From Deltaproteobacteria bacterium (GTDB taxonomy: Bacteria > Myxococcota > B64-G9), in the NCBI GenBank assembly GCA_030622135.1, contig JAUXGL010000001.1, forward strand, positions 601 through 64,600: a stretch of 64,000 nt of DNA. The letters are read 5' to 3'. Every line of letters begins with the position of its first letter. The stretch's first letter is position 1. The position numbers and the translations under genes are program-made. Below, piece after piece: positions 19,735 through 64,000 of this stretch. The notes under the pieces were generated by a model that searched no databases, was not told where the DNA came from, and was given only the letters and a program-made list of their open reading frames with translations.

Positions 19735-19842
19735 TATGAGATTCCTTTCTGCGCGGTTTCGCTTGACACCCCACGGGGCCATAGTCTATTTCTCGAACGC
19801 TTATCCTTATTTTTTCCTGCCTTTTTGAAAAGGAGATGGGAG

Positions 19843-21051: not shown

Positions 21052-21114
21052 TGCCCGTCTTAAAACTCCACTTTTCGAGGACGGCGTCGCGCCACACTTC
21101 TTAGGGAGCCCGAC

Positions 21115-21864: not shown

Positions 21865-21878
21865 GAAGGGGACGCAAG

Positions 21879-23036: not shown

Positions 23037-23040
23037 GGCC

Positions 23041-23505: not shown

Positions 23506-23581
23506 GGGCCGCTGAGTAGCACAGTTGGTTGAACCGGTTTTAAATTCCGTGCACCCAAGCAGGGTTAGCTGAGGTGAAGCC

Positions 23582-24340: not shown

Positions 24341-24349
24341 GGGGCGTCA

Positions 24350-26352: not shown

Positions 26353-26528
26353 GCGTCTGCGGCCATGCCAGGTTTCTTTTTCGAGCGGCAGTGGTTCTGA
26401 CCCATCCCCTCCAATCAAGCCTTTAAAATAATGAGACAAGCCCGGGCCCGACCGGGTCCTCCATGCGGGCACTTCACACGGCTCCGGCCGTGCAAGTACT
26501 CGTTGTTGAGAGGAAAGGAGGGACTTCA

Positions 26529-28088: not shown

Positions 28089-30116
28089 TTATTTGTGAAT
28101 GAACGGGGCGGGGGAACGGGGGCCTTTGGTTAGGAAGTTTTGGATGCCGATCTTGGTGTCCTCGGTTTTTACGCATTCTCCGAACATTTCGGATTCGAAG
28201 TGGAGACCCTCCTCCAGGGGCTTGCGGCAGCCTTCGATTATGGTGCGGCAAAGAATTCGGTCGATGGCTTGGCTCAGGTGGCCCAGCTCCAGGTTGGGGA
28301 GCTTGTCGGGGGTTTCGATTGGGTCCTTGGATATGCCTTTGAGCTCGACCTGGCCTGAGGCGGCTTTGCCGGCGAGCTCGATGGCGTAGTCGATCAGCTT
28401 GTCGCCGTCCACCTCCTCGGAAAAGAGGCCCAGCTTGACGCCTTGCTCGGAGGAGATGGGCTTGCCGGTGCGGAGCAGCTCCTGGGCTTTCTGAAGGCCG
28501 ATCCAGCGGGGAAGGCGCTGGGTGCCGCCTGCGCCGGGGATTATGCCCAGGTTTACCTCGGGCTGACCGGCGGCCATTTTCATGCCTTTCTTGACCAGGA
28601 TGGTGGAGCAGCACATGGCCAGCTCGATGCCGCCGCCCAAAGCCAGGCCGTTCAGCGCGGCGATTACCGGCTTGCCCAGGTTTTCAACGGCCAGGCCGGC
28701 TTCCTTGGAACGTTCGCCGCTGTCGATGCCCTCCTGGGGGGTCTTGATCCCGGCCAGGAAGTTGATGTCGGCGCCGGAGACGAAGGCTTTGGTGCCGTAG
28801 CCGGAGAGGACCACCGCCTCGATCTTGGAGTCGTTCTTGATCTCGGAGAAGACTTGCTTCAACTGGGCAAAGACTTCGGGGTTGAGGGCGTTTAGTACTT
28901 TCGGGCGGCGGATGCGCACCCAGGCGACGTCGCCCACATCGTGGCGGCGGACGTGCATGATCTCGAAGGGCTGGTCGGCGGCGGCCTGCTTCTTTATGCA
29001 TTCGGGGACCGGGAAGCTGTCGTGGGTCTTGCTATAATCCTCGACCAGCTTGAGGGATTCTTTCGCCCCGAGCTTGTTCATGAGCCGGAAGGGTGGCTGG
29101 ATGTCCAACGCGATCTCCAGGGCCATCTCCAGGTCGGCTACGCTTACGATCCCCGAGTCGATGATCATCCCGGCCAGGCCGAAGTAGGCGCCCAGCAGCG
29201 TATCGGCGATCCTCTTCTCCTGGTCCGCTTGAAGCTCGACTTTTTCGCCGCGGCCGGCCACCTCCCACGGCTTTCCGGACGCAACCGCGTCCTTGAGCAG
29301 TTGGGGGGAGCGGAACCAGGGGATGTTGTAGCGTTGGCCCTCCATCTCGAGCCCGTGGTCGGTCAGCGGGTTGCCGCCGGTTAGGTTCATGGCGGTGAAG
29401 GAGCCGACGGCCAGGCCCAGCGTGCGGGTTCCCACCGCGTCGACCTCCTTGACTGTCCCCAGGCCTTCCTCTACGGCCAGAGCGTTGGCCAGAAACAGGC
29501 CCTCGAAGATGGGGTCGACGGCGTAGCCGTAGCGGCTGCCCACCCGGATGGGCACCTTGCCGATGCGCTCATACAGGCTCATCATGCTGTGGGTGAGCTT
29601 GGGGTCGGTGTCCTTGCCGGGGACTATCTCGATCATGGGGTTGCGCTCGGCCGGGAAGAAGTAGTGGGTTACCATGGTGCGGTTTTTCTTCGAGAGCGGC
29701 TCGAAGATGACCTCCGGCTCCAGGTGGGACGAGTTGGAGGTCAGAATCGCCGTTTCCGGACAGAGCTTCTCCACCTGCAAAAAGATCTTCCGCTTGAGGT
29801 TTAGATCCTCGGAGGCTGCCTCCACCACCAGGTCGGCGCCGCGGAGTTGCTCGTAGTCGCTGGTGAAGATGGTGTTCTCGATCATGGCCGCGCCCATCTC
29901 CGGCCTAAACGCCCCGGCCTTGACTCCCTTCTCCACCTTCTTCTTGAGCTTGGCCGCGCCTTTTTCAAGCGCCTCCGCCACCACGTCCACCACCACCACG
30001 TTGACGCCGTAGGGGTGGAAGACCTTGGTGAAGTGCAGGGCGATGTCCGGTCCGATCTGGCCGGAGCCGATGACGCCGATCTTCTTGATGGTAAGTCCCC
30101 GGAATTCGAAAGCCAT
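28089..30116 (-). CDS. Bifunctional 3-hydroxyacyl-CoA dehydrogenase / enoyl-CoA hydratase (HCDH N-terminal, crotonase C-terminal)
   Basis: 675 aa; N-term IGVIGSGQIGPDIA NAD-binding plus 3HCDH C domain; C-terminal crotonase fold (GGGIELAMCC). Confidence 0.85.
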   Translation of the reverse strand: MAFEFRGLTIKKIGVIGSGQIGPDIALHFTKVFHPYGVNVVVVDVVAEALEKGAAKLKKKVEKGVKAGAFRPEMGAAMIENTIFTSDYEQLRGADLVVEAASEDLNLKRKIFLQVEKLCPETAILTSNSSHLEPEVIFEPLSKKNRTMVTHYFFPAERNPMIEIVPGKDTDPKLTHSMMSLYERIGKVPIRVGSRYGYAVDPIFEGLFLANALAVEEGLGTVKEVDAVGTRTLGLAVGSFTAMNLTGGNPLTDHGLEMEGQRYNIPWFRSPQLLKDAVASGKPWEVAGRGEKVELQADQEKRIADTLLGAYFGLAGMIIDSGIVSVADLEMALEIALDIQPPFRLMNKLGAKESLKLVEDYSKTHDSFPVPECIKKQAAADQPFEIMHVRRHDVGDVAWVRIRRPKVLNALNPEVFAQLKQVFSEIKNDSKIEAVVLSGYGTKAFVSGADINFLAGIKTPQEGIDSGERSKEAGLAVENLGKPVIAALNGLALGGGIELAMCCSTILVKKGMKMAAGQPEVNLGIIPGAGGTQRLPRWIGLQKAQELLRTGKPISSEQGVKLGLFSEEVDGDKLIDYAIELAGKAASGQVELKGISKDPIETPDKLPNLELGHLSQAIDRILCRTIIEGCRKPLEEGLHFESEMFGECVKTEDTKIGIQNFLTKGPRSPAPFIHK

Positions 30117-34642: not shown

Positions 34643-35884
34643 ATGAGCGAAAAGAAACTGGAACAGAAGAAGATAGCCTCGGTGAAGACATTCAAGAAGA
34701 TCATGGCGGATCACTTCCTGCAGATCGACGCGGCCGCGAGGGATCCCGGGCGTAAGGTGGCTTGGTGTACCAGCGTGGGGCCGGCGGAGCTTTTGCAGGG
34801 GTTTGGGTTCGAGGTGTACTACCCGGAGAACCACGCGGCTATTCTTGGGTCCACCCGGACGGCCACGGACTATATACCCTACGCCAACGCCGCCGGGTAT
34901 TCCCCGGAGATCTGCTCCTACCTGACCGCCGACGTGGGTGCATACATGCAGGGCTTCACTCCGTTGACCAAGGTCTACGGGATCGAGAAGATCCCCAAGC
35001 CCGACGTGCTGGTCTACAACACCAACCAGTGCCGCGACGTCCAGGACTGGTTCATGTGGTATTCCCGCGAGTGGAAGGTTCCCTGCGTGGGTATCGAGAC
35101 CCATCGCGGCGTGGGCGCGGTAACCAAGGTGCACATCGATTCCATAGCCGGGCAGCTCCAAGACCTCGCCGGCAAGCTCGAGAAGATCGCCGGGCACCCG
35201 CTGGACATGGATCGGTTCAAGCAATCGGTGGAGCTGTCGCGCCGGTGTTCGGAGCTTTGGGACAAGGTGCTCCGCGCCGGTACGGCGGTGCCTTCCGCCA
35301 TCACTTTCTTCGACGGCACCATCCACATGGGTCCCGCGGTGGTCCTGCGCGGACTCCAGGTGGCGGTGGACTACTACCAGGAACTGTTGGTCGAGATGGA
35401 AGCGCGGGTGCAGAACAAGGTGGCCGCGGTCGCAGGGGAGAAGCACCGTCTTTACTGGGAAGGCATGCCTGTCTGGGGCAAGCTCAGAAACCTGTCCATG
35501 CAGTTTCTCGAGCTGCAGACCTGCGTGGTGGCGTCCACCTACTGCAACTCCTGGATTTTCAATCAGCTGGATCCCGACGAGCCCTTCGAGTCCATGGCCC
35601 GCGCCTACACCGAGCTGTTCATCGTCAGAAGCGATGCGGTCAAGGAGGACTACATTGCCCGGATGTGCGCGGACTACCGAGTCGACGGTTTCTTTTACCA
35701 CAACGCCCGCACCTGCCCGAACAATTCCAACTCCAGCTACGGAATGCCCCAGCGCCTGACCGAGCGGACCGGGAAGCCACACCTGGTCATCGACGGGGAT
35801 CTCAACGACCTGCGCTGTTACTCGGAGGAACAGGCCAAGACCAACATCGAGGCCTTTGTCGAGCAACTCGCCCAGGCAACATGA
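34643..35884 (+). CDS. 2-hydroxyacyl-CoA dehydratase / benzoyl-CoA-reductase-subunit family protein (HgdB/BcrB-like)
   Basis: 413 aa; family hallmarks including conserved Cys (WCTSVGP, ICSY, CNSW, CPNNSNS) and overall length and conservation pattern of HgdB/HadC/BcrB-type subunits. Confidence 0.7.
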   Translation: MSEKKLEQKKIASVKTFKKIMADHFLQIDAAARDPGRKVAWCTSVGPAELLQGFGFEVYYPENHAAILGSTRTATDYIPYANAAGYSPEICSYLTADVGAYMQGFTPLTKVYGIEKIPKPDVLVYNTNQCRDVQDWFMWYSREWKVPCVGIETHRGVGAVTKVHIDSIAGQLQDLAGKLEKIAGHPLDMDRFKQSVELSRRCSELWDKVLRAGTAVPSAITFFDGTIHMGPAVVLRGLQVAVDYYQELLVEMEARVQNKVAAVAGEKHRLYWEGMPVWGKLRNLSMQFLELQTCVVASTYCNSWIFNQLDPDEPFESMARAYTELFIVRSDAVKEDYIARMCADYRVDGFFYHNARTCPNNSNSSYGMPQRLTERTGKPHLVIDGDLNDLRCYSEEQAKTNIEAFVEQLAQAT

Positions 35885-36660
35885 AACTGTTCTGCGGCAT
35901 CGACGTTGGCTCGGCCGCCACCAAGGCCGTCCTGATCACCGGGTCTCTCGAGGTGCAGGGGCGGGGGCTGTGTCCCTCGGGAGCCGACTTCTCGGCCGCG
36001 GCCCGGCAGGTGTTCGACGCGGCCCTGGCCGGGGTCGGCGCCGGGGAGGCCGACGTAGAGGCGATCGTCTCCACCGGCTACGGCCGCACCAACGTGGATT
36101 TCGCCACCGCCAGGCGGACCGAGATCGACTGTCACGCTCGGGGTGCCTATCATCACTTCAAAAGGGCCATCACCGTAGTCGACATCGGTGGCCAGGACAA
36201 CAAGATCATCCAGCTCGATGCCGCGGGCAAGTGTCTCAAGTTCGCCATGAACCGCAAGTGCGCGGCCGGTACCGGCGCCTTTTTAGAGGAGATGGCCCTG
36301 CGGCTGAACGTCCCCATCGACAAGCTCTCGAAGATGGCCGAAAACAGCGCGGCCCCGGGTGTATCCATCGGCTCCTACTGCACGGTCTTCGCCATGACCG
36401 AGATTCTCTCCAAGGTGCGCGCGGGAGTGAAGACCGAGGACCTGGCCCGGGCGGCCCTGGTCTCGGTGGCCAAGCGCCTCCTGGAGACCCAGGCCATCGT
36501 CACGGACATCGTGGCCACCGGCGGCGTGGTGGCTCATAACCCGGTTCTGCGGGACATCCTCAAGGAGATTTTGAAGACCGAGGTTCATATCCCTCCGCAT
36601 CCCCAGCACATCGGAGCCTTCGGCGCCGCCCTGGTGGCCGCATCGGAGCAGAAGGAGTAA
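35881..36660 (+). CDS. Acyl-CoA dehydratase activase (HgdC/BcrAD/BadFG ATPase family)
   Basis: 259 aa MKLFCGIDVGSAATKAV (ASKHA phosphate-1 motif), cluster-bridging Cys pair, ATGA-coupled to upstream gene. Confidence 0.8.
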   Translation: MKLFCGIDVGSAATKAVLITGSLEVQGRGLCPSGADFSAAARQVFDAALAGVGAGEADVEAIVSTGYGRTNVDFATARRTEIDCHARGAYHHFKRAITVVDIGGQDNKIIQLDAAGKCLKFAMNRKCAAGTGAFLEEMALRLNVPIDKLSKMAENSAAPGVSIGSYCTVFAMTEILSKVRAGVKTEDLARAALVSVAKRLLETQAIVTDIVATGGVVAHNPVLRDILKEILKTEVHIPPHPQHIGAFGAALVAASEQKE

Positions 36661-36663
36661 AAG

Positions 36664-38769
36664 ATGGCAGACCTGAACAACCTCTTCCGCCCCCGGGGTA
36701 TCGCCATCATCGGCGCGTCCAATCGCCCGTTCACCATCGGCCACCGCATCATGGCAAATCTACAGACCTACGGTTTCAAGGGCCCCATCACCCCGGTCAA
36801 CCCCAAGGGTGGGGAGATCCTGGGCGTTCCGGTGGCCAGGTCCATAAAGGAAGTGCAGAACGACGTCGACCTGGCCCACGTCATCGTGCGCAACACCCTG
36901 GTGGCCCCGACCCTGCGCGACTGCGCCGAGAAGGGCGTGAAGGTGTGCATAATCAACACCTCCGGCTTCAAGGAGCTCAACCAGGAAGGCGCGAAGATGG
37001 AGCGGGAGATCGTCGAGATCGCCCGTGAGCTGGGCATTCGCCTCTTGGGCCCCAACTGCCAGGGGGTGATGAACACCGACTTGGAGGTGAACCTGTACTC
37101 CAACTTCACCTTCGCCAAGATGACCCCGGGCCACGTGTCCATGGTCTGTCAGGGTGGTGGTGTCGCCGAGGTAATCAACAACTACTTTGGCATGAACCAC
37201 ATCGGCCAGCGCATGTACGCTTCCCCGGGAAACGCCTGTGATATCTCCATCCCCGAGATCCTCGAGTTCTACGGCGACGATCCCGGGACCCACGTCATCG
37301 TCCTGCACCTGGAGAGCTTTGCCGATCCCCAGGAGTTTTTAGACAAGGTCCCCGCCATCACCGCCAAGAAACCCGTTCTGGCGCTCAAGTCCGGCACCAC
37401 CCCGGAGGGTGCCCGGGCGGTCTCCTCGCACACCGGTGGCCTGATGGAGCAGGACACCGTCACCGATGTGCTGTTCGACAAGTGCGGCGTCTTGCGTTTC
37501 GCCAATCTCGGCGAGCTTTGTGACACCGCCGCCGCCTTCGCCACCCAGCCGGTCCCCAGGGGCGACCGCGTGGGCATGGTTACCAACGCCGGTTCCCCCG
37601 CCATCATCGTCACCGATGGGGCGGTCAAGGCCGGCCTGAAGGTCCCCGACCTGAGCGAGTCCTCCAAGGAGTTTTTGCGGGAGAAGCTCTCGGCTATCGC
37701 CTCCATCGCCAACCCCATAGATATGATGGCCACCGCCGCGGAGGCCGAGTTCGGCGCCTCGCTCAAGATCCTGGTGGAAGACGCCAATCTCGATTCGGTG
37801 GTGGTTTGCTTCATGACCCCCTTCTTCGTCGACACTCTGGGCATTGCCAAGGCGGTGGAGACCTACGCGGCCCAGACCGACCGCACCCTGATTGCCGTGG
37901 CCATGACCGATCCCGGCGGAAAGGCGGAGTGGAGAGAGACGGTGGAGAAGGTCAGAAAGGCCGGCCTTCCGGTCTACTATTTCCCCGAGGACGCCGCCCG
38001 GGTGCTTTATCACATGAACCGTTTCCGCGCCCTCAGGGACCGCCCGCGCGAGGCCCCGCCCAGGCTGGCCGTGGACAAGAACGCGGCCCGGGGCCTGATC
38101 CAGGGCGCCCAGCGGAGCCCCGATGGTTTCATCTCCCCGGAGGACGCCGGCGCCATCCTGAAGGCCTACGGCATCAACATGGTCGCCGAGCACCGCGGCG
38201 GTACTTTCAACGACCTGAAGGCGGCCGCGGCCAAGATAGGCTACCCGGTGGTCCTGAAGGCCGAGGCTCCAACCCTGGTTCACAAGACCGAGTCTTTCGC
38301 GGTCATCTTAAACATCAAGGACGAGGCCGAGCTGAAAAAAGCCTTCGACGACCTCTATGCCCGCTTGAGGGGCGTCCTGGACTTGTCCTACCTGTTGCAG
38401 AACCAGCTAATCGGTGGCCTGGAGGTCATCGTCGGCGGCGCCCGGGCCTCCAAGTTAGGCTCCATGATCATGTTCGGCCTCGGCGGCGTGAACGTGGAGA
38501 TATTCAAGGACGTGGTCTTCAAGCTGGCTCCCCTCTGCCGTTCCGAGGCCGAGGAGATGCTTGCGGAGATCAGGTCGTCCACCCTGCTGGACGGCTTCCG
38601 CGGCCAGCCGGCGGTCGACCGCGGCGCCCTGGTCGAAATCCTGTTGAAAGTCTCCGTTCTGTTGCACGACCACCCCGAGATCGAGGAGCTTGACCTGAAC
38701 CCGGTCATGGCCTTTCCCGAAGGCCGCTCGTCCGTGGTGGTCGATGCGAGGATCAAACTGGGCAAATAG
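36664..38769 (+). CDS. ADP-forming acyl-CoA synthetase (NDP-forming; fused alpha/beta, CoA-binding + ATP-grasp)
   Basis: 701 aa; N-term RGIAIIGASNRP CoA-binding, catalytic His region, C-terminal ATP-grasp; starts 3 nt after activase stop. Confidence 0.8.
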   Translation: MADLNNLFRPRGIAIIGASNRPFTIGHRIMANLQTYGFKGPITPVNPKGGEILGVPVARSIKEVQNDVDLAHVIVRNTLVAPTLRDCAEKGVKVCIINTSGFKELNQEGAKMEREIVEIARELGIRLLGPNCQGVMNTDLEVNLYSNFTFAKMTPGHVSMVCQGGGVAEVINNYFGMNHIGQRMYASPGNACDISIPEILEFYGDDPGTHVIVLHLESFADPQEFLDKVPAITAKKPVLALKSGTTPEGARAVSSHTGGLMEQDTVTDVLFDKCGVLRFANLGELCDTAAAFATQPVPRGDRVGMVTNAGSPAIIVTDGAVKAGLKVPDLSESSKEFLREKLSAIASIANPIDMMATAAEAEFGASLKILVEDANLDSVVVCFMTPFFVDTLGIAKAVETYAAQTDRTLIAVAMTDPGGKAEWRETVEKVRKAGLPVYYFPEDAARVLYHMNRFRALRDRPREAPPRLAVDKNAARGLIQGAQRSPDGFISPEDAGAILKAYGINMVAEHRGGTFNDLKAAAAKIGYPVVLKAEAPTLVHKTESFAVILNIKDEAELKKAFDDLYARLRGVLDLSYLLQNQLIGGLEVIVGGARASKLGSMIMFGLGGVNVEIFKDVVFKLAPLCRSEAEEMLAEIRSSTLLDGFRGQPAVDRGALVEILLKVSVLLHDHPEIEELDLNPVMAFPEGRSSVVVDARIKLGK

Positions 38770-38776
38770 AGGTGTT

Positions 38777-40321
38777 ATGGCGAACTGGCTGAACCTGGGC
38801 GAGATGCTGAGACAAAACGCTCACAAGTACCCCGAGACGATCTGTCTCATGGACCGCGAAAGGTCTTTCACCTTTCCCCAGTCCAACCGGCGCGCCTGCC
38901 GCCTGGCCCACGGTTTAATGTCTTTAGGGTTGAAGAAGGGCGACCGGGTCTCTTGCCTTTTGGAGAACTGCATCGAGTTCGTGGAAATCTACCTGGCCTG
39001 CGCCAAGGTCGGCATCGTGGTGAACCCGATCAACTTCCGCGTTTCCCCGCGGGACGCTCTTTTCATCGCCAACCACGCCGAGGCCCAGGCCTTCATCGTC
39101 CACGACATCTTCACCGACACCGTCGACGGCATCCGCCGGGACTTGATTGTTCCCCAGGATCGCTGCGTGGTCGTGGGTAAGGAAAAAGACGGCTACATTC
39201 CCTACGAAACCCTGATCGACCCAGGCGACTCCTCCGAACCCCAGGTGGAACTGAAACCGTCGGACCCCTGGATCCTCCTCTACACCTCCGGCACCACCGG
39301 TCGCCCCAAGGGGGTGATGAGGTCTCACGAGTCTTACGTGGCGTTTTATTTAATCAACGCGATAGACTTCGATTTTCGCCCCGGCGACCGCGTACTGAAC
39401 ATGATGCCCCTGTGTCATGTCAACACAACCTTCTTTACCTTCACCTTCACTTACATCGGCGGCACGACCTACGTGGCCCCCGCCATGGGCTTCGACCCCA
39501 AGAAGATGTTGCAGATCGTCGGGGACGCCGGGATCAACTTCATATCTCTCATTCCCACCCACTACGCCCTGATTTTGGCCGTACCCGAGGAAGAGAGAGC
39601 GAAATACGACGTCTCCAGCATCAAGAAGCTCCTGTGCTCCTCGGCCCCCGCGAGGATCGAGCACAAGCATGGCATCATGAAGTACATGCAGGGCGTCCAA
39701 CTCTACGAAGGCTACGGCTCGACCGAGGCCGGCATCGTGACCACGTTGATGCCCGACGAGCAGCTGACCAAGCCCGGCTCAATCGGCAAGGAGTCTTTGG
39801 GCACCGACCGCGTAAAGATCCTCGACGAGGAAAAACAAGAGCTCCCCCGCGGCCAGATCGGCGAACTGTACTCCCGCGGCCCCATGATGTTCGACGGCTA
39901 CTACAAGGACCCCGAAAAAACCACCAAGTCATTCGCCGGCGAATGGTTCTCCGCCGGCGACATGGCCTACCAGGATGAGGACGGCTATTTCTTCTTAGTC
40001 GATCGCAAGCACAACATGATAATCACCGGCGGCGAGCACGTCTTTCCCTCCGAAGTCGAGAACGTACTCTGCCAGCACGAAACGGTCCTAGACGCCGCCG
40101 TAATCGGCGTCCCCCATGACAAATGGGGCGAATCGGTCCACGCCGTAGTGATATTAAAGGAAGGCTGCTCCTGCCGCGACCAGGATCTGATGGACTTCTG
40201 CCGCGACCGCTTAGCCGGTTTCAAGCGCCCCAAGACCGTCCAATTCATCGCCCTTGACGAAATGCCCCGCACCGCCACCGGCAAGATCCTCCACCGCATC
40301 CTGCGCGAACGCTGTTCTTAA
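38777..40321 (+). CDS. AMP-dependent acyl-CoA synthetase/ligase
   Basis: Preferred ATG 38777; AMP-binding motif LYTSGTTGRPKGV, YGSTE, C-terminal GKI lysine region. Confidence 0.85.
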   Translation: MANWLNLGEMLRQNAHKYPETICLMDRERSFTFPQSNRRACRLAHGLMSLGLKKGDRVSCLLENCIEFVEIYLACAKVGIVVNPINFRVSPRDALFIANHAEAQAFIVHDIFTDTVDGIRRDLIVPQDRCVVVGKEKDGYIPYETLIDPGDSSEPQVELKPSDPWILLYTSGTTGRPKGVMRSHESYVAFYLINAIDFDFRPGDRVLNMMPLCHVNTTFFTFTFTYIGGTTYVAPAMGFDPKKMLQIVGDAGINFISLIPTHYALILAVPEEERAKYDVSSIKKLLCSSAPARIEHKHGIMKYMQGVQLYEGYGSTEAGIVTTLMPDEQLTKPGSIGKESLGTDRVKILDEEKQELPRGQIGELYSRGPMMFDGYYKDPEKTTKSFAGEWFSAGDMAYQDEDGYFFLVDRKHNMIITGGEHVFPSEVENVLCQHETVLDAAVIGVPHDKWGESVHAVVILKEGCSCRDQDLMDFCRDRLAGFKRPKTVQFIALDEMPRTATGKILHRILRERCS

Positions 40322-51271: not shown

Positions 51272-52252
51272 CTATATCCCCAGAATGCGGCCGATCGCCT
51301 TGGCTAGATCGGTAAACTCCTTGCGAGCCCTGGCCACAGCCTGAATCTGTCCACCACCGATTCCGTCGGCCTGCTTGAGATCGAAGATTGGCTTGCGAGC
51401 TTGCTGTGCGAGCGGCACCAGGCTCGCGAAGTGTTTCAGCAATGCGATGCAATGGGGGTCCCTGTCCACGCTCGCTGGCCAGCGTTTCTCTGGTGTCTGG
51501 AGCACCTCATGGTGGAACACTGATGGGATCTGGCTCGCCCAACGCTGGTACCCGCGCACAGGTCTGTCCGACCGTGCAAGGTGCTGCTGTACGATGTACC
51601 CTCTTGGCAGGAACTCATGCGCAACCGGGCGTGGATCAGTCCGCTCGGCGGCGCGCTGCCAGTCTTTGCGCCAATCCCTCATCACAGGTCCCACGTTCCG
51701 GAGCCCCTGGAGGCTGAACAAATCCGGAGCGACCGGCAGGATAACCACGTCTGCGGCCAGGAGCGCTGCCCGGTTGAGCGCCCCCAGGTTGGGTCCGACG
51801 TCGAGCAGCAGCACATCGGCTTCGACCTTCTCCGCGGCGATGTCCGCAAGCCGCTGCAGGGCAGTAGCCACGTGGAGAGCCTTCTCATTGTCAGATTGAT
51901 GGATCTGCCCCCAGCTCTCCGCCAAAGGCTGCTCGAACCGGCCCAGCGCCAAGTCTCCAGGAAGAACCCAAAAATCATCGGCGATCTGGACCGGGGCTGG
52001 ATCCACGATGTCGCCCTTGCCGCGGCGGACCAGATCGATACACCGGGCCACGGTCGTCCCTCTAGGATCTTCAGACTCCCAGAGATCGACGAGACTCTCT
52101 TCGCTGAGACAGATGGCGGACAAGTTGCACTGGGGATCGTAGTCCAAGGCGATCGTCTTGAATCCCTGGCGAGCAAGTATGTGAGCGATGTTGAAGGTCA
52201 GGGTGGTCTTTCCCACTCCGCCCTTGTTGTTGAACAGGACAAGCGATTTCAA
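51272..52252 (-). CDS. ParA/MinD-like P-loop ATPase with C-terminal extension
   Basis: 326 aa; deviant Walker A NNKGGVGKTT; 4-nt overlap with upstream AlbA_2 gene. Confidence 0.75.
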   Translation of the reverse strand: MKSLVLFNNKGGVGKTTLTFNIAHILARQGFKTIALDYDPQCNLSAICLSEESLVDLWESEDPRGTTVARCIDLVRRGKGDIVDPAPVQIADDFWVLPGDLALGRFEQPLAESWGQIHQSDNEKALHVATALQRLADIAAEKVEADVLLLDVGPNLGALNRAALLAADVVILPVAPDLFSLQGLRNVGPVMRDWRKDWQRAAERTDPRPVAHEFLPRGYIVQQHLARSDRPVRGYQRWASQIPSVFHHEVLQTPEKRWPASVDRDPHCIALLKHFASLVPLAQQARKPIFDLKQADGIGGGQIQAVARARKEFTDLAKAIGRILGI

Positions 52253-53442
52253 GTATGACTCCGAATTGTGATGACCGTGTAGCCATCCGTCCTCACTTCG
52301 AACGGCGGGTTGCCATTTTTTTCTAGAAGTCGGCGCACCCGTTGGATGCCGCGACCCAGGCGCTCGACATATCCCAACTCGACCAGCAGGTTGGTGATGG
52401 TCGGATTCCGGTAGTCGGCCTGATCCCCGAATTCACCCTCCTTGGCCTGGCCATACGGACCACCCGGGTTGTAGAACTCGATCCGATCCTTGAACCAATT
52501 AATTCTGCCGGGCGCGTTCGTCCCCTCGTACAGCCTGTGCTGGACCTGGTTCCGCGCAAGCTCCCTCAGAGCCTCGACCGGATACTCCGGCGGGTACGGG
52601 GTTCGGATTCCCTGCTCCTTGGCCACCACCTGCGAGTTGTTGGCATTCAACTGAGCCCAGATGGTCTCCAGTTGGTCACACAGGTCTCCGGTGATGGTGC
52701 GTCGGCTTGTCACGGTCGAATCGACATCGACGCCATCGTAGCGCGCGAACTCCACGAGCGCCCCTGGCAGGTAGGTCAATGGATCCACACCGTACACGAG
52801 GACCGCGGCAGTGGTGGGCACCCAGATTCCGTCCACCAAGCGGGCCAGGTTCTTCTGCCCAAGCCATTTCTCGAACTCGGGGAAGGTCTGGTCATCCTCG
52901 TCCGAGTGCCGGGCGACATCGTACCGCTCCCGGAGTTTGCGCAGCGCCAGGGCGCCCAGGTCTGACCCGCGATGCGGCCTGATATCGAAGGGTTGACGAC
53001 CCTCGGGACGTCGTTCGTTTAATCGGACTCGATCTGCCTCGGTGGCTCGTTGGGTCGAGGTGCCCACTCGCACCCAGGGAACACCATTGACCTCGACCAC
53101 GGGCGGAACGGGATATGGCTGGACGCGGACCACGAGTATTTCACAACCAGCGATGTCGGCCTTCTGCACCCCGAACGAAGGGTTGGGGAGAATCTTCGTA
53201 GATTTCAACCTGTTGACAACTCTCTGGATGGCTTCGTCGGAGGCATCCGTCCCGACAGGTTCGCCCCTCTTGTTCACTCCGATGAGAATGACACCCGGAC
53301 GCCCACTGTCGCCGAGGTCGTTGGAGAAAGCGCATGCGGACCTGACCACGTCGTCGCTATCCGATTCTTTCCACTCAGACCATTCGCTCTCGCCAGCCAA
53401 GGCTTCTTTAACTATGGCCAGTATTTCGCCCGCTCCAGACAT
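52249..53442 (-). CDS. Schlafen-like AlbA_2 + HATPase_c_4 (RecG-C-terminal-like) putative DNA-binding ATPase
   Basis: 397 aa; N-terminal AlbA_2-like (EWKES...SACAFSNDLGDSGRPGVILIGV); C-terminal GHKL-like segment (ALRELARNQVQHRLYEG...RIEFYNPGG). Confidence 0.7.
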   Translation of the reverse strand: MSGAGEILAIVKEALAGESEWSEWKESDSDDVVRSACAFSNDLGDSGRPGVILIGVNKRGEPVGTDASDEAIQRVVNRLKSTKILPNPSFGVQKADIAGCEILVVRVQPYPVPPVVEVNGVPWVRVGTSTQRATEADRVRLNERRPEGRQPFDIRPHRGSDLGALALRKLRERYDVARHSDEDDQTFPEFEKWLGQKNLARLVDGIWVPTTAAVLVYGVDPLTYLPGALVEFARYDGVDVDSTVTSRRTITGDLCDQLETIWAQLNANNSQVVAKEQGIRTPYPPEYPVEALRELARNQVQHRLYEGTNAPGRINWFKDRIEFYNPGGPYGQAKEGEFGDQADYRNPTITNLLVELGYVERLGRGIQRVRRLLEKNGNPPFEVRTDGYTVITIRSHT

Positions 53443-55998: not shown

Positions 55999-56496
55999 AT
56001 GGTAAACCCGAAGATACAGATCAAGACCAACTTGGGCGACATCGAGGTGGAGCTGGATGCGGGGAAAGCTCCCCTTAGCACGGCGAACTACCTGCAGTAT
56101 GTAAAAGACCGGCACTACGCCGGCACCGTGTTTCACCGGGTGATCCCCGGCTTTATGGCTCAGGGCGGTGGTTTCGACAAGAGCTTCAACCAGAAGCCCA
56201 CCCGTGACCCCATCAAAAACGAAGCCGAGAACGGCCTGAAGAACCTGCGCGGCACCCTGGCCATGGCCAGGACCAACGAGGTGAACTCGGCCACCTCCCA
56301 GTTTTTCATCAACCTGGCCGACAACTCCTTTTTGGACAACGGATCGCGCGACTTCGGCTACGCCGTTTTCGGCAAGGTGACCGGGGGCATGGACGTGGTC
56401 GACAAGATTGCAGAGACGCCCACCGGTTCCAAGGGCTCTTTCTCCAAGGACTGTCCTCAATCAGACGTTGTCATAGAGTCGGTTGAGACCCTGTAA
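55999..56496 (+). CDS. ppiB: Peptidyl-prolyl cis-trans isomerase, cyclophilin type (cytoplasmic)
   Basis: 165 aa; [27 protein letters not shown] cyclophilin signatures. Confidence 0.9.
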
Positions 56497-56510: not shown

Positions 56511-57095
56511 ATGAAAAGGCTCGCTATCGTTATCGCGCTGACCGCATCCGTCCTGTTTGCCGGCACCGCCCTGGGCGCCGACAATAAGGCCGCCAAGAAG
56601 GGCAATCCCGCGGTGGTGATCAAGACCAGCATGGGGACCATCGAGGCGGTTCTTTACAAGGACAAGGCTCCCATCTCGGTAGAGAACTTCCTCAAGTACG
56701 TAGAGGACACGCACTACGACGGTACCATCTTCCACCGGGTCATCCCCAACTTCATGATTCAGGGTGGCGGCTTCAATGCCAAGTTCAGTCAGAAGAAGAC
56801 CCGCGACCCCATCAAGAACGAGGCCAAGAACGGCCTGAAGAACGAGCGCGGCACCTTTGCCATGGCCCGCACCAGCCAGGTCGATTCGGCTACCTGCCAG
56901 TTCTTCATCAACCTAAAGCACAATAAATCCCTCGACAACGACGCCCGCGGCTTCGGCTACGCCGTTTTCGGCAAGGTGACCCGGGGCATGGACGTGGTCG
57001 ACAAGATTGCCAAGGTCCAGACCGGCGCCAAGGGCTCTTTCTCCCGCGACTGCCCCAAGGAAGACATCACCATCGAGTCCGTCCGCGTAAAGTAG
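56511..57095 (+). CDS. ppiA: Peptidyl-prolyl cis-trans isomerase, cyclophilin type (secreted)
   Basis: 194 aa; signal peptide [23 protein letters not shown]; cyclophilin signatures. Confidence 0.9.
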
Positions 57096-57548: not shown

Positions 57549-57998
57549 CCTACATTTCGCAAGTCACGGAGGGTGTTCTGGGGAGAATTTCCTCGTACTA
57601 TGATAGAGGGTCCATCAGGCGTAGACTGACGGGTCCATGTCGAGGAGACGGAGGAGTTGTTTTTGTATACCAGAGAGCTCGATAGGAAACGTGGCCATCT
57701 CTTTTCCTCTTTCGAAATCATACCAGCAGACGTCGCTGAACTGAATGTCATTTCGAGGAGCGCAGCACGGTGTCGTTGACCCCTAGGTTCGGTCGAGGAT
57801 GCCGGCAGGGGCGGAGTGTGCCTGGATTCACGTCTTTTCTCGTAGTCGTGCCTGAGATTGTCGTCGCTGGGCTTGATTCATAAGGTTGAATCGTGGTCTG
57901 TTTCCAAATTGGAACTCGATGGAAGGAGTGACTCGGAGGAAAAGGTCCTTTATTACACCTATCCCTTACGCCACGATTATCTGACGAAGGGGTTGACC

Positions 57999-58649
57999 AT
58001 GAAGAAAAAGCGCAAACTAAACATTCTTGTGTCTTCGGTAGTGTATGGGTACGAAGACCTGCTGGAGAGCGTGTATTCGCTCCTGGAGACCTTCGGATAC
58101 AAAGTGCTCATGTCGCATAAGGGCACCGTGCCGATCGATCCGGACATCTCGGCAATGACCAGTTGCCTGGAAGCGGTCAAGAGGTGCGACCTATTCCTTG
58201 GCATCATTCTGCCACGATATGGATCAGGGAAAGAGCAGAAAGGCGGTCTGTCCATAACCCATCGCGAAGCACTGCACGCCATCAAAATGAACAAACCCCG
58301 CTGGTTTCTTGTCCATGAGCACGTTGCCATCGCCCGCCAGCTTCTTGATCCGTACCGCGACGAGACGAAGAAGCCAGAGTTCAAACTCAAACGTGGCACC
58401 ACTTTCAAGTCGACGTCGATCCTTTCCGATTTGCGCGTCCTTGAATTGTATGAAGCCGCCATGCGGCATAACGTGCCCGAGATCGCACACCGCAAAGGGA
58501 ACTGGGTGCAGTCCTACGGGCCGGACGACGATGCGCGTCTCTTCGCCACGGCGCAGTTCCGTCGCCACAGGGAATTGGCTGAGAAGTACCTGCCCAAGCT
58601 GGAAGACACGGGAGCGATTCGGGATCGGGTAGAGGGATGCAAATCATGA
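57999..58649 (+). CDS. DUF4062/TIR-like small protein (candidate defence effector or sensor)
   Basis: Preferred ATG 57999 (MKKKRKLNILVSSVVYGYEDLLESVYSLLETFGYKV...). Pattern hydrophobic-ISS...DL.E.R/ES...L, flavodoxin-like size, resembles DUF4062 as remembered. Overlaps the next gene by 13 nt. Confidence 0.55.
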   Translation: MKKKRKLNILVSSVVYGYEDLLESVYSLLETFGYKVLMSHKGTVPIDPDISAMTSCLEAVKRCDLFLGIILPRYGSGKEQKGGLSITHREALHAIKMNKPRWFLVHEHVAIARQLLDPYRDETKKPEFKLKRGTTFKSTSILSDLRVLELYEAAMRHNVPEIAHRKGNWVQSYGPDDDARLFATAQFRRHRELAEKYLPKLEDTGAIRDRVEGCKS

Positions 58650-60028
58650 GATCTGACGTCCTCCATGTGATCGAGAACGGGGAGTCCGAGACCGCTGAGT
58701 TCAAGAGTTCTCGCAGTTCGTTCGAGGCACTTGCACGAGCCGTCTGCGGGATGCTCAACCAGCAGGGAGGTGTACTTCTTTGGGGTGTCGATGATACCGG
58801 GCAGCTGACGGGCGTGGAAGATGCCGAGGCCCAAGCAGAGGACCTGACGCACTTTCTGATGCGTCACATGAACCCACGCCCCTTGCTTTCCGTCTCGGTG
58901 CATGAGGCCAAGGGCAAGCCGATCATCATGGTTGATGTGCCCTCGGGTTCGGACAAACCATACTCGCTGGGCCGGCAGATTTTGGTCCGCATCGGGAGCA
59001 GAACGATGCGCGCCGGTGTGGACGAAAGTGCGGCTTTGGTGGAGCAGAGCGCGATAGAGCTGGAACGCTGGGAGCGTGAACCCATGCCCGGCTTTGCGGT
59101 GGAAGACTGCGATGTTGATGAGCTTGAGAAAGCAAGATCCGAGATCGCGCAAGCAGGGCGATTCGGAATCGATGCTCCTGCGAGTGACGAAGAACTGTTG
59201 CAACGTCTCTATCTGTGGCGCAACGGACAGGTCACGAATGCCGGTGTTGTCCTTTTCGCATCTCAACCGCGCATGTGGGTGCCTAACGTCTTCGTGCGTG
59301 TTGTGTCCTACGCTGAAGGCAAGGCTGGGCCCATCGCCAACGATGTGATCGTGGATGGTCCAGCCGTCCGATCTCTGCGTGAGGTCGTGACAATCATTCA
59401 GCAACGCACCGGTTTCTCCGGTAGGTTCGTGAAGGGCAAACTGAAACGCGAAGATCGGCCTGCGTATTCCGTGTTCGCCCTGAGGGAGGGACTGGTGAAT
59501 GCCATCACTCACCGGTCTTACGAGGTCATAGGCGGCAGTGTGTGCGTGGAGATATTCCCAGATCGTCTCGTCATCCGCAATCCGGGCAGACTGCCGGACG
59601 GGTGGACAGCACAAGACCTGCGACGCGTGCACGGGTCGCATCCATTCAACCCGGACATTGCCCAAGTGTTTCTCCTGCGCGGGCTGATGGAACAGCTTGG
59701 GATGGGGACACAGAAACTGATGGCCGCGTGCAAGGAACTGGGCGCCAAACTGCCGGTTTGGCGCGTCGAACAGGGCACTGTGGCACTGACGATCTTCCAG
59801 GCACCCGAACCGGAGGCGGCAGACGTGCTGACAGGGCGTCAGGCCGAATTCGTTGGCTCGCTGATGGCTGGAGCTGAGTTCAGAGCTGCCGATTATTTGA
59901 GCGCTACCGGTATGAGTGAGCGCCAGGGGCGGCGTGACCTGGCTGAACTGGAGAAACGGGGGATCATCGAACGCCACGGCAAGGGACGGGCCACGGTGTA
60001 TAGACGGACTGACGGGGGTCGCTCATGA
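58637..60028 (+). CDS. Schlafen-like AlbA_2 + HATPase_c_4 + C-terminal wHTH protein (RecG-C-like putative regulator/ATPase)
   Basis: 463 aa; AlbA_2-like (ETAEFKSS...LARAVCGMLNQQGGVLLWGVDDTGQLTGV), GHKL-like (NAITHRSYEV...VCVEIFPDRLVIRNPGRLPDG), wHTH (DYLSATGMSERQGRRDLAELEKRGIIERHGKGRATVYRR). Same layout as 52249..53442. Confidence 0.7.
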   Translation: MQIMRSDVLHVIENGESETAEFKSSRSSFEALARAVCGMLNQQGGVLLWGVDDTGQLTGVEDAEAQAEDLTHFLMRHMNPRPLLSVSVHEAKGKPIIMVDVPSGSDKPYSLGRQILVRIGSRTMRAGVDESAALVEQSAIELERWEREPMPGFAVEDCDVDELEKARSEIAQAGRFGIDAPASDEELLQRLYLWRNGQVTNAGVVLFASQPRMWVPNVFVRVVSYAEGKAGPIANDVIVDGPAVRSLREVVTIIQQRTGFSGRFVKGKLKREDRPAYSVFALREGLVNAITHRSYEVIGGSVCVEIFPDRLVIRNPGRLPDGWTAQDLRRVHGSHPFNPDIAQVFLLRGLMEQLGMGTQKLMAACKELGAKLPVWRVEQGTVALTIFQAPEPEAADVLTGRQAEFVGSLMAGAEFRAADYLSATGMSERQGRRDLAELEKRGIIERHGKGRATVYRRTDGGRS

Positions 60029-60324: not shown

Positions 60325-61029
60325 CTACCGGCTGGACGCTTGGCGAATAGCTTGCGGTTGAGCGGGGATGCGGGCGATGACCAGGGCCAGGGTTTCGTCT
60401 TCGGACAGGCGCCAGAAGATGTCCGGCCGGGCGCCGTCTCTGGATTTCACCACGGCTTTCTTCCAGGTGCGGGAACCGGTCGGATCTAGGGAGAGGACGT
60501 TGACGCTCTTGGTGCTCTGGTGGAATCCGGTTCTCTGGGCCTTGAGCACGGCTTCCTTGATGCACCAGATCACCGTGCCGGCTTTGTGCTTCCAGTCGTC
60601 GGGGAACTGCTCGATCAGCTCGCGCTCCTGGTCGGTGTAGAAGTCCTCGTAGAAGTTCCGCGACCGGTCCGCCACCACCTCGATGTCCGCGCCGACGGTT
60701 CCCTCCTGGTCGGGGCAAACGGCGCACAGGGCCCGTTCGCCGGAATGAGAGATGGAGAGCGAGACCGGGAGGTGGGTTCCCTCGATGGTCAGGGGTTGCG
60801 GCCAGCCGTCCGGCGCCCGTTTGATGTGGATGAGTTTTTGCGGGGGCAGGTCTAGGGCCAGGTCGCCGGCGGTTCGTTCCAGCAGGGTCTTGGCGGCGGC
60901 TCTTCCCAGCAGCCACTGGCGGTAGCGTCCCGGATGGCGGTAGCGCCGGCCTTCGTGGACCTCAAAGAGGCATAAAAACTCTTGATCGTTCAGCCCGGGC
61001 CCGGGTCTGGCCAGCAGCCAGCGGATCAT
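60325..61029 (-). CDS. 4'-phosphopantetheinyl transferase (Sfp/PfaE-type)
   Basis: 234 aa; GADIEVV and [10 protein letters not shown] PPTase motifs; 4-nt overlap with the upstream PKS gene. Confidence 0.75.
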
Positions 61030-64000
61030 TGGTCTTCTTCTTCGGGTTCCAGCCCGGAGCGAACATCGTTCGGAAGCGCATTGGGCATTGGCGATGTGCG
61101 GTAGCCGTCGAGCTCCACCAGAACGAAGCCACGCTCGTCTACCACCTGGATTCCGTATTGGCCGTGATTGCCGCCGTTCTGCGGAACCACATGGGCGGTA
61201 ACCTTACCGCGATCGCCCTCGGGGACGCGATTGATCTTCATCTTGCGGACTCCGGCGGGAAGACCGAGCTTGTTGCTGGAGGAGGCCTCCATGATCCCGG
61301 CCGCCTGGAAGGCCAACTCGGTGAACATGGGGGCCGCGGAGAGGTTGCCCGGCTTGGCCAACGGGGGCAGCTCCGTTCCGGAACGCATCCAGCCGGACAT
61401 TTTACCGTTACCGTTCGCGGTCACCTTATCGAGCACCTGGAAGCTGGGGCCGTGGAAGTACGCTCGGTAGATGGCTTCCCGGCTGATACGGCGGGTGTCT
61501 CCATTTCCGGGTGGGTCCATCCGTACCTCGGGCATGTCCACGTCCAGGCGTACCTTGGCACGAAAATGGCGGGTGGTCTGCTGCTTTCCGCCATGCAGGT
61601 TGCGAGTGGTCTCCATGGTTGCCAGAAACAGCCGGCCCTTTCCGTCCCAGGTGGGCAGCATGCGCACGGTGGCCGTGCGGGGCTCGTCTCGGTAGAACTT
61701 CAAGGGTGCGTCGAAGGACAGATCCTCGATGGCCACCACGGTCAGGTCCGGGCGCATCAGGCCGGCGGCCTCGGCGAAGGTCTCGATGGCCATCACCCCG
61801 GGCAACACCGGTAGCCCGTCGATGCGATGATCGTCCAGGTAACGGTCGCGTGACGGATCGAAGCCGACCCGGAGGCGCAGCCCGTCCGCCAGGGTCCAGT
61901 CCAGCACCTCGCCGAGTAGCGGAAAGCGTTTCGGGTTGTCGGTGAGCCGGCTGCGTATGATCTGCATGTCTACGCCTTCCAGTCTCAGGCTCTCGGCCAG
62001 TAGGCCCAGGGAGCGCGCCACCACCAGCTCTCCCGAGTGTCCGCTCGAGAACACCCGGCGCACGGACGTCGCGCCCTCCCGCTGGGGGATCAGGTTGATG
62101 CCGACGGCGTCCAGTTGCTTGGGCACCGACCCCCGCGTGGCCATACCCACGCCGTCCCAGCCGCTGAATGCCAGGGTGAACACCTGCAGGTCGGGGCGAG
62201 TGCGCTTCAGGTAGGTCGTGGTCTTGGCCATCAGATCGTTGGCGGCCGAGTAGTCGGTCTGCCCGGCGTTGCCGAAGCGACCGGCGACGGACCCGAAGAG
62301 CATGATCCCCTTGACCGGTACGTTCCGGGTGGCGCGGAGCAGGGAATGGAGCCCGTACACCTTGACGCCCAGGATGAGATCGAAAGATTCCCGGGTCTTC
62401 TTGGCGATGCCCTGGCTGTGCTCCAGCCCGGCCGCGTGCAGGATCAGATCGATCCGCCCGTGGGCATCTTTGATCTTTTGCACGGCCCGGGCGGTGGCTT
62501 CCGCATCCGTCACGTCGAAGGCCAGGGAATGAGCTTCGCCGCCCTGTTTTCTCACGTTCTCCAGGTTCGAAAGCGCCGCGGCCTTCCGTTCGACCTGTCG
62601 CAGCGCCTTCTCCACCTGGACCGGCGTGACCCGTTCACCCTGTTGTTTCATACGCTCGATGAGCGTCGCTTTCAGGGCATCCCGGTTTTCGCGCAGGGCC
62701 AAAACGTCCGGGTCGTCCTGTGGGGGAGCCGGAACCAGATCGGCCAGGTAGTAAGTGCCGCCGAGATGTCCGGCCAGATCGCCGGCGATCTGACCGGTGA
62801 TGTCGCCGGCCCCGCCGGTGATCAGGACCACCGGATTCTTTTCCAGTGGGGCCTGTTCGTCGGGAACAAACTCGCTTAGCCCCACGCCCCAGCGACGGAT
62901 CCCCCGCCGGCCCACTTCCACGACTCCGCCGTCGCGCTCCGCCTCTTCGACTAATGTGGTTGCGATTGTGCTCGCATTCACGTCTTCGGGCAGATCGACC
63001 ACCTTGCAAAGCGTCCGGGGCCACTCGCGGGAAAGTGCTTTGACCAGCCCGGTGGTTGCGCCGGACGCCGGATCCAGAGACCCTCCGCCCGGACGTAGTC
63101 CCAGGTGTCCACCCATCCGGGTGGCACACACGAAGAAGCCGCCTTCCGTATTCGAAAGATGCTCGTCAAGTACCTGGGCTACCCTGAAGGGCATACGTGC
63201 CCGTCGATCGATAGCGCTCTTGAATGCCTGGGTATCCTCGGTGTCCGGCGGCACCGCATCGGAGAGCGCCGAAAGGATCCAGACCCCTTTCGGCGGCCCG
63301 GCCTGGCATGCTTGCCTGATTCTCTCGGCCACGGCGTCCGGATCGCCGGAGTCATCAATCCGCAGCGGATCCCCGCCCCGCACCCGCAGCGCTTCTTCGA
63401 TCGCCGCGGCCGCACCGTTAAAATCACCGATGATGAACGACCGGCCGGCGGGATTCACTCCGGTGGGCAAACACTCCCGGGCCCGCGGCCTCCCCACCAA
63501 CACCGGTGCCAGATACCGCATCGATTCCGACTCCGTCGCCACACTGTCCAGCGGTTCGATCGTCGGCGCGCCTTCTTCCGGCTCTTTTGGGTCTTCTTTT
63601 GCGGGTGTCGTTCCCATCTTGTCTTGTGCAAACTGGATGACATGATTGAGCGTAGGATATTCCGACAGTTTCAGGTCGTCCTGCTTGGGGATGTTGAAGG
63701 CCGCTCGCACCTCCGAGAACATCTCGGCCTGCTTGACCGTGTCGATGCCCAGATCCGCTTCCAGATCCAGATCGAGGTCGAGCATATCCGTAGGATAACC
63801 GGTCTTATCGGAGACAATGGCCAGGACCTTGTCCTTGATCGCTCCTATATCTGCTTTGGGGCGATCGGCTTCAACCCGGTCGCTTTGTTGTTTGCTTTGT
63901 TGTTTGCCGTCCTGTTTTTTAGGGCCTTCCTCGCCGGCTTGAGGGTGAACCTGAACGTTGACGGTCTCTTTCTCAGGCTCTTTTGCGGGCGCGTCCGGCG
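61026..64000 (-). CDS. PfaA-like PKS/PUFA-synthase C-terminal part: ACP - ketoreductase - PKS-type dehydratase (N-terminus beyond window)
   Basis: Reading frame is open to the window end. ACP motif [14 protein letters not shown]; KR ([16 protein letters not shown]); DH ([11 protein letters not shown] HxxxGxxxxP, HGPSFQ). Confidence 0.75.

Follow-up and report, generated by a model that had tools for sequence, protein, structure and literature searches.

The window analysed here, a stretch of 64,000 nucleotides from a contig (JAUXGL010000001.1) of an uncultured, Myxococcota-related bacterium, ends in a lipid synthase locus on its minus strand. This locus very probably comprises the last three domain types (acyl carrier protein, ACP; ketoreductase, KR; dehydratase, DH) of a single giant iterative synthase gene and a translationally coupled phosphopantetheinyl transferase (PPTase), belongs to the Type R family of secondary lipid synthases, and would make a largely saturated lipid by the mechanism proposed below. 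Across the family we detected threonine in place of serine at the predicted attachment site of the ACPs, and the neighbouring genes encode one of two flavoproteins that are candidates for a trans-acting enoyl reductase (ER). The first-pass annotation of this DNA had placed the same genes in a polyunsaturated fatty acid (PUFA) or polyene locus of the pfaABCDE type, an assignment that the comparisons with related loci do not support.

The synthase fragment and its PPTase

We identified the following features at the end of the window:

61026..64000, minus strand: 3' part of a PfaA-like iterative type I synthase gene (990 codons and a stop; open to the window and contig end)
63834..64000, minus strand: linker between tandem ACP domains, low-complexity and rich in Pro, Ala, Lys and Gln (amino acids 1-55 of the fragment; pLDDT <50)
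63630..63833, minus strand: ACP, the last of the tandem array (PF00550 at amino acids 56-123)
61929..63533, minus strand: polyketide synthase (PKS)-type KR with structural and catalytic subdomains, approximately amino acids 156-690 (PF08659 at amino acids 470-614; motifs; AlphaFold2 model and Foldseek)
61077..61922, minus strand: PKS-type double-hotdog DH (PF21089 and PF14765; motifs)
60325..61029, minus strand: Sfp-type (group II) 4'-PPTase, 234 amino acids (PF01648; motifs; profile match to Sfp)
61026..61029, minus strand: ATGA overlap of 4 nt between the synthase stop codon and the PPTase ATG (sequence; coordinates of the open reading frames, ORFs)

The synthase frame, from position 63998 down to the stop codon at 61026-61028, is free of any other stop and encodes, in order, the linker, the ACP, the KR and the DH. 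All the Pfam domains found in its translation score above their curated cut-offs (PP-binding at amino acids 56-123, KR at 470-614, PKS_DH_N at 693-787 and PS-DH at 833-974). The KR keeps its NADPH motif (TGGAGDITG at amino acid 394) and its catalytic Tyr within DYSAAN (amino acids 582-587), and the DH its catalytic His in HxxxGxxxxP (amino acid 724) and the second motif ELAFQ (amino acids 894-898). An AlphaFold model of the fragment has a mean pLDDT of 80.9, and Foldseek returned two-subdomain PKS ketoreductases (5d2e and 2fr0) as its best PDB matches, with a TM score of about 0.8 on the target. The top NCBIfam match is TIGR02813 (PfaA), with 264 bits over positions 1831-2342 of the 2582 in the profile, which is its C-terminal part. 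The ACP-KR-DH order and the PfaA-like C-terminal affinity that had been read from the letters alone are confirmed by the translation, the Pfam domains and this profile match.

At the junction the synthase ends in GAC CAA TGA, overlapped by the ATG of the PPTase, as the first-pass annotation had noted. The PPTase contains the motifs P1a (DGWP), P1b' (LSISHS), P2 (GADIE) and a P3 of the type WxxKEAxxK, and an alignment with 14 orthologues showed that P1a and P1b' are conserved and that P2, P3 and the residues D114, E116, K157, E158 and K162 are invariant. With two lobes, about 230 amino acids and the GxDxE and WxxKE(A/S)xxK motifs, it has the characteristics of the Sfp-type group II enzymes. A PDB search with the sequence alone gave no match, and Sfp was reached only through a profile: that of the 15 PPTase sequences aligns with Sfp (1qr0/4mrt) in both halves, over Sfp residues 21-170, with an E value of 1e-11. 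The NCBIfam matches of the synthase, of the PPTase and of the acyl-CoA dehydrogenase-like protein (ACAD) encoded beside the synthase in relatives all stay below their cut-offs. A promoter and terminator scan downstream of the PPTase gave nothing above chance.

Full-length relatives and membership of the Type R family

Three related loci (L010, L005 and L006) encode KS-AT-KS2-ACPn-KR-DH in a single frame, where KS stands for ketosynthase and AT for acyltransferase, followed by the PPTase. Their identity to the window is 79% at the nucleotide level over the aligned stretch and about 80% at the amino acid level for L010, and 62% and 47% at the amino acid level for L005 and L006, respectively. Downstream, L005 has the same genes as the window (two cyclophilins, an S1 protein and an M50 peptidase), and in the closest relatives the ACAD, the synthase and the PPTase are the only genes enclosed by housekeeping genes syntenic with those of the window. 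The full-length relative P0121 (2593 amino acids) has the same Pfam order and scores 987.7 bits against TIGR02813, for which the cut-off is 1010.1. From this synteny the missing 5' part of the window gene is expected to encode KS-AT-KS2 and further ACPs, and an ACAD gene would lie upstream of it in the window organism. The supposition that the remainder of the gene is to be found past the window end is supported by the frame that stays open to the contig end and by the fuller gene in these relatives. The upstream part found there is a PfaA-like KS-AT, and not the unrelated modular PKS or nonribosomal peptide synthetase (NRPS) that would have spoken against a Pfa-like affinity.

Type R secondary lipid synthases were described as one pfaA homologue with the order KS-MAT-CLF-ACP(3-6)-KR and a PPTase downstream, sometimes with acetyl-CoA carboxylase genes, as in Koribacter, and were listed for Ca. 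Solibacter usitatus Ellin6076, Ca. Koribacter versatilis, Roseiflexus spp. and Elusimicrobium minutum (Shulse & Allen 2011, PMC3098273). Their PPTases have a P1a motif x(G/D)xP and a P1b' motif hShxH in place of (F/S)NxSH (PMC3098273). In the window, the PPTase lies directly downstream of the pfaA homologue and has the corresponding motifs DGWP and LSISH. The window itself holds only ACP-KR-DH; the full architecture KS-AT-KS2-ACPn-KR-DH, with its extra KS-like ('CLF') domain and tandem ACPs, is seen in the relatives and in P0121. A KS-AT-KS2 query matches a protein of Solibacter usitatus Ellin6076 (P0205, 2635 amino acids) and proteins of Roseiflexus, which carry the same threonine-type ACP motif as the window; the Solibacter protein is homologous to the N-terminal half of the relatives' synthases and 49% identical to L005. 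Acetyl-CoA carboxylase genes are inserted in L008 and L025, as in Koribacter. On the basis of these homologues, the P1a and P1b' motifs and the carboxylase genes, we therefore placed the window locus in Type R. Absent from the published description are the C-terminal PKS-type DH, the threonine site, the intact triad of the 'CLF' and the flanking PfaD or ACAD genes seen in the family. The window locus differs from the listed cases in that it comes from an uncultured Myxococcota-related lineage and is cut by the contig end.

Of 120 proteins, at least 107 keep the Cys of the second KS domain and 118 keep both of its His motifs. Judged by these residues, the domain resembles a further active KS rather than a classical chain-length factor (CLF). 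Reading frames in the family are intact, and KS, AT, KR and DH retain their catalytic motifs. Among 8,000 candidates scored, 7,337 were Type R proteins at E <= 1e-30, from metagenome-assembled genomes (MAGs) and strains named Acidobacteriota, Chloroflexota, Myxococcota, Actinomycetota and others. The genomes nearest to the window (59-64% identity) are uncultured Myxococcota or 'Deltaproteobacteria' MAGs. More distant carriers include Terriglobales and many Anaerolineae, among them the cultured Longilinea arvoryzae and Bellilinea caldifistulae. The locus is an ordinary member of a widespread and catalogued family, and 'Type R synthase with a trans ACAD-type reductase' should replace the PUFA or polyene reading.

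A sigma-70-like protein (319 amino acids), a zf-HC2 anti-sigma-like protein (about 90 amino acids) and a TPR protein are conserved in the closest clade and divergently encoded upstream of the ACAD (L010 3836-7958, L005 1-2753, L012 and L021); these genes may have a regulatory role in the cluster, or their position may reflect synteny only. We also found a Type-R-like synthase in two MAGs labelled Thermoplasmatota, which are archaea (L084 4856-16565, where it has 3081 amino acids, and L086). There it is followed by BioY and biotin carboxylase genes, and PPTase, ACAD and PfaD were not detected nearby. These copies could reflect horizontal transfer into archaea or a binning error.

Comparison with PUFA synthases and other iterative systems

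The order KS-MAT-tandem ACP-KR-DH with a PKS-type DH, the iterative logic and the dedicated Sfp-type PPTase are shared with the canonical PUFA synthases of Shewanella, Moritella and Photobacterium. It could be argued that the window holds the end of a canonical pfaABCDE locus, with pfaB, pfaC and pfaD past the contig end and a PUFA as product; PfaA is indeed the best NCBIfam match, and tandem ACPs with an adjacent PPTase are Pfa hallmarks. We searched the neighbourhoods of related loci with flanks of up to 10 kb on each side rather than whole genomes, using 72 loci for additional KS or AT genes and 83 loci for PPTase, ACAD and PfaD genes. In the 72 loci, KS and AT homologues were confined to the single synthase gene, and therefore there is no pfaB (AT) or pfaC (KS-CLF-2xFabA-type DH) adjacent to the synthase in the neighbourhoods searched. 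Both are also absent from the 61 kb that follow the PPTase in the window, where the genes are unrelated. Five Pfam-annotated neighbourhoods likewise showed no Pfam families of pfaB or pfaC type and contained no FabA-type dehydratase/isomerase gene, the enzyme type that introduces cis double bonds in the canonical systems.

Further differences concern the proteins themselves. The second KS lies within the same protein in the relatives of the window, unlike in canonical PfaA; the full-length P0121 stays just under the curated PfaA cut-off, and the 264 bits of the window fragment are likewise below it. The ACPs carry LG[IV]DTVKQAE, and the window ACP has Thr where canonical PfaA has the Ser of LGIDSIKRVE; this class (Thr, KQAE) is sharply separated from the PfaA class (Ser, KRVE). 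The PfaD-type ER (FMN-dependent, NMO fold) of canonical Pfa systems is absent from the window and from 16 of 16 loci with an ACAD, the ACAD-like protein being the putative ER in the clade of the window, and only ACAD, synthase and PPTase lie between the syntenic housekeeping genes of the closest relatives. The PPTase, which had been likened to pfaE, has P1b' (LSISH) where the PfaE type has FNxSH, and its partner ACPs present Thr and not Ser. By these differences and by the neighbourhoods searched, the canonical reading is largely refuted already, and we give it hardly any remaining probability. For the pfaB, pfaC and pfaD homologues that the first-pass annotation proposed to look for, the outcome is divided: pfaB and pfaC are missing from the loci searched, and PfaD homologues occur in 50 of the 83 loci, with none in the 16 loci with an ACAD.

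Enediyne PKSs (PKSE; SgcE and CalE8) have the order KS-AT-ACP-KR-DH-PPTase, with a single ACP and a fused C-terminal PPTase, and make a polyene with a partner thioesterase. The likeness is that of an iterative KS-AT-ACP-KR-DH enzyme akin to PUFA synthases with a closely tied PPTase. The locus described here differs by its tandem ACPs (at least two identical copies, and four in a fragment with 85% identity), by the KS2 of the relatives and by a PPTase in a separate ORF. We rejected an enediyne PKSE, which has a single ACP, a fused PPTase and a lone KS, as well as a modular type I PKS or NRPS, since the relatives have one domain set, tandem ACPs and no C or A domains.

Threonine at the predicted carrier attachment site

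Carrier proteins are, by the textbook rule, modified on serine. In the window ACP, Thr87 of the fragment (encoded by ACG at 63738-63740, read directly from the DNA) is predicted to be the attachment residue, and in PDB alignments with solved ACPs it falls exactly on the phosphopantetheinyl Ser of DLGxDS. Thr was present in every ACP motif detected among the 120 best matches to the C-terminal query. It was also found at 185 of 185 ACP sites in proteins retrieved with a KS-AT-KS2 query that contains no ACP, and at all 190 sites of 78 species-representative genomes. These 190 sites use the four Thr codons (ACG 85, ACC 63, ACT 25 and ACA 17) and never a Ser codon, though one is a single substitution away. 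Each protein has one to six tandem ACP copies.

An index-free HMMER search with the ACP only, over 1.84 billion representatives, gave two clean classes, Thr with KQAE and Ser with KRVE or KKAQ, the latter being the canonical PfaA type. Above a length of 2300 amino acids, the KS2 signature was present in 29 of 30 proteins of the Thr class and in 1 of 22 of the Ser class. Two exceptions to the Thr rule were observed: P0338 (3234 amino acids) combines the KS2 signature with Ser-type ACPs (LGIDSVKVAE), and the fragment P0340 (534 amino acids) has two Thr-type ACPs and one of the Ser type (LGVDSIKQAE). These two may be evolutionary intermediates.

The arm is probably carried on Thr because the conserved ACP site is Thr, and the simplest reading of these sequences is that the PPTase found directly after the synthase in 78 of the 83 loci probably attaches it there. 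As an alternative attachment site we considered the invariant Ser of KLS[DE]YPTL. It lies at the position of the xFxxPT loop of other carriers and not at the start of helix II, and is therefore not favoured.

The Thr-type ACPs might also not be phosphopantetheinylated at all, and serve as structural or decoy domains beside another carrier or belong to a decaying locus. The Pfam PP-binding scores are modest, and an exchange of Ser for Thr abolishes the modification of the E. coli ACP (PMC3340395). Decay is difficult to reconcile with a Thr kept at every one of the 190 sites in 78 species through all four of its codons, and at the 185 sites found with the ACP-free query. The tandem copies, the intact frames and the retained KS, AT, KR and DH motifs also argue for function. 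In addition, a PPTase with intact catalytic residues is attached in 78 of the 83 loci, and no other carrier gene is conserved nearby. We regard inactive carriers as very improbable. The more specific proposal is that the tandem carriers of the family bear phosphopantetheine on Thr, installed by the co-transcribed PPTase as a matched pair insulated from the Ser-specific ACP machinery, and that an ACAD-type flavoprotein displaced PfaD as the trans-ER; we hold this combined proposal tentatively, at slightly less than an even chance.

A putative trans-acting enoyl reductase beside the synthase

The 83 loci fall into four groups according to the flavoprotein encoded beside the synthase:

PfaD homologue just after the PPTase: 50 of 83 loci, mostly Chloroflexota-named
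ACAD-like gene (about 550 amino acids) directly upstream of the synthase: 16 of 83 loci
Both PfaD homologue and ACAD: 0 of 83 loci
Neither PfaD homologue nor ACAD: 17 of 83 loci, mostly with truncated flanks

In Bellilinea the PfaD homologue (568 amino acids, with PfaD_N, NMO and FabD_helical_ins) is convergent and lies just after the PPTase. Wherever a Myxococcota- or Acidobacteriota-named locus extends far enough upstream, the ACAD was detected; all close relatives of the window are among these loci. In P0145, from an Anaerolineales MAG, an ACAD (amino acids 2-529) precedes the KS-AT-KS2 synthase (amino acids 599-2136) in one continuous frame, as an N-terminal fusion. By its name, the organism of P0145 belongs to a lineage that usually has PfaD as partner. 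Mutual exclusion together with a fusion is the signature of non-orthologous displacement, and we therefore infer that the ACAD is the trans-ER of the clade to which the window belongs, as far as sequence and gene context can indicate.

The ACAD of the relatives is similar to ETF-dependent enoyl-CoA reductases, where ETF is electron-transferring flavoprotein (AcrC of Clostridium propionicum, Bcd-EtfAB and CarC). Its best NCBIfam match is the ETF-dependent acryloyl-CoA reductase AcrC (221 bits, below the cut-off), it resembles the structures of MCAD, Bcd and CarC, and genes for EtfAB and an FeS/CCG oxidoreductase adjoin it in three loci (L007, L008 and L026). It differs from AcrC, Bcd and CarC in that all its scores are below the curated cut-offs, in a C-terminal extension of about 165 amino acids that gives it a VLCAD-like length and region, and in its substrate, which would be ACP-bound; the gene lies outside the window.

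The presence of KS, AT, ACP, KR, DH and ER functions and the lack of a FabA-type isomerase lead us to expect a reduced long acyl chain, and thus point to a product that is neither a PUFA nor a polyene. A non-reducing iterative synthase could instead make a conjugated polyene or a 3-hydroxy or enoyl chain, like an enediyne PKSE or polyene pigment system, with the ACAD acting in desaturation or tailoring. KR and DH are present in the synthase and an ER domain is lacking, ACADs are usually dehydrogenases, and the order of enediyne PKSEs, KS-AT-ACP-KR-DH-PPTase, is similar. However, ACAD and the PfaD-type ER exclude each other (16 and 50 loci, none with both) while flanking the same operon, an ACAD is fused to the synthase in P0145, and a dehydrogenase that forms a 2-enoyl product would be redundant with the DH domain. 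The tandem ACPs, second KS and separate PPTase are moreover unlike a PKSE. A non-reducing synthase is therefore unlikely, though less so than either a canonical pfa locus or inactive carriers.

Assembly break at the ACP repeats

The source contig (JGI 3300040951, Ga0451374_12503, 88,862 bp) stops 63 nt past the window inside the tandem ACP repeats, and the synthase gene is partial because of this. Attempts to extend the contig, as the first-pass annotation had proposed, ended in these repeats. The identical PPTase is found on four public contigs, and each of them is interrupted at this same point; L001 has a second, identical ACP copy immediately upstream of the linker. The assemblies break here because the tandem repeats are nearly identical. 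A fragment with ACPs 85% identical to that of the window has four of them in tandem. When 39 nt of the ACP were matched exactly against JGI metagenome contigs, only the unrelated contig L009 turned up, and no upstream contig of the window organism was recovered.

In other assemblies of the same organism, L001 (1-400) and L002 (1-300) show a frameshift or deletion in the ACP repeat relative to the window, which is probably repeat collapse during assembly and not biology. In L005 and L006, spurious antisense ORFs are called over the repeat region and runs of N mark gaps there.

Other genes in the window

Directly downstream of the PPTase, on the opposite strand (57858-60028, plus strand), a DUF4062 protein (263 amino acids) overlaps a 463-amino-acid protein with SLFN/AlbA_2 and HATPase_c_4 domains. 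A second AlbA_2/HATPase_c_4 protein (397 amino acids; 52249-53442, minus strand) adjoins a ParA-like ATPase. Both AlbA_2 proteins have weak partial PADLOC matches to models associated with prokaryotic Argonaute (62 and 53 bits), and the pair may be defence-related. Two adjacent cyclophilin-type peptidyl-prolyl isomerase genes (55999-56496 and 56511-57095, plus strand; 165 and 194 amino acids) are about 79% identical over about 360 nt, and the pair is kept beside the synthase locus in the 62%-identical relative L005.

Further from the locus, we detected genes of an anaerobe type at 12435-14375, 19825-26500, 28089-30116 and 34643-40321, none of them pfa-related. These encode an aldehyde:ferredoxin oxidoreductase and ferredoxins, two thiolases with a short-chain dehydrogenase/reductase, enoyl-CoA hydratase and ChsH2-like protein (beta-oxidation-like), a FadB-like fusion, a 2-hydroxyacyl-CoA dehydratase (HGD-D) with its BcrAD activator, and an ADP-forming acetyl-CoA synthetase. 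Scans of the window for tRNAs and Rfam families found none.

Proposed mechanism and significance

In the model that we propose, the PPTase would turn the tandem ACPs into their holo form, with the arm probably on Thr, and the AT domain would load malonyl units. The two KS domains, both with a Cys-His-His triad, would extend the chain, and the KR and the PKS-type DH would yield a trans-2-enoyl-ACP. This intermediate would be reduced by a trans-acting flavoprotein, the ACAD-like enzyme encoded upstream in the clade of the window and the PfaD homologue in Chloroflexota-named relatives. The predicted product is a largely saturated long acyl chain, a specialised lipid and neither a PUFA nor a polyene.

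Several points weigh against this model. Thr is, to our knowledge, not an established phosphopantetheine acceptor. ACADs normally oxidise, and the reductase role proposed here comes from gene context, with ETF genes near only 3 of the 16 ACAD loci. The window contig carries neither the 5' half of the synthase gene nor the ACAD gene, and no thioesterase or other release enzyme is conserved beside the cluster in the related loci. The E. coli ACP variant S36T cannot be modified (PMC3340395). The product of Type R is uncharacterised (PMC3098273), family members being without any known product, and a 2026 survey lists a handful of characterised secondary lipids, none of them from Type R.

Our literature searches covered subscription papers poorly, and as weak evidence they found no later characterisation of Type R, neither the motifs GIDTVKQ, GVDTVKQ and DTVKQAE nor Thr-for-Ser in carrier proteins, and no relevant link between PfaD, ACAD and enoyl reduction. 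As far as we found, the family-wide Thr site, the apparently active second KS and the putative PfaD/ACAD displacement are undescribed.

Type R synthases are common, yet no product or role has been assigned to them since they were catalogued in 2011. The gene context turns them into a testable model, a complete elongation cycle with a swappable trans-ER (PfaD or ACAD), and the cultured carriers Solibacter usitatus, Longilinea arvoryzae and Bellilinea caldifistulae make experiments feasible. If the model is true, the ACAD would represent a type of trans-ER not recognised in megasynthases before, and attachment to Thr would be a new post-translational linkage, against the Ser-only rule. It would also provide an orthogonal ACP/PPTase pair for engineering and could explain why Type R synthases nearly always travel with their own PPTase.

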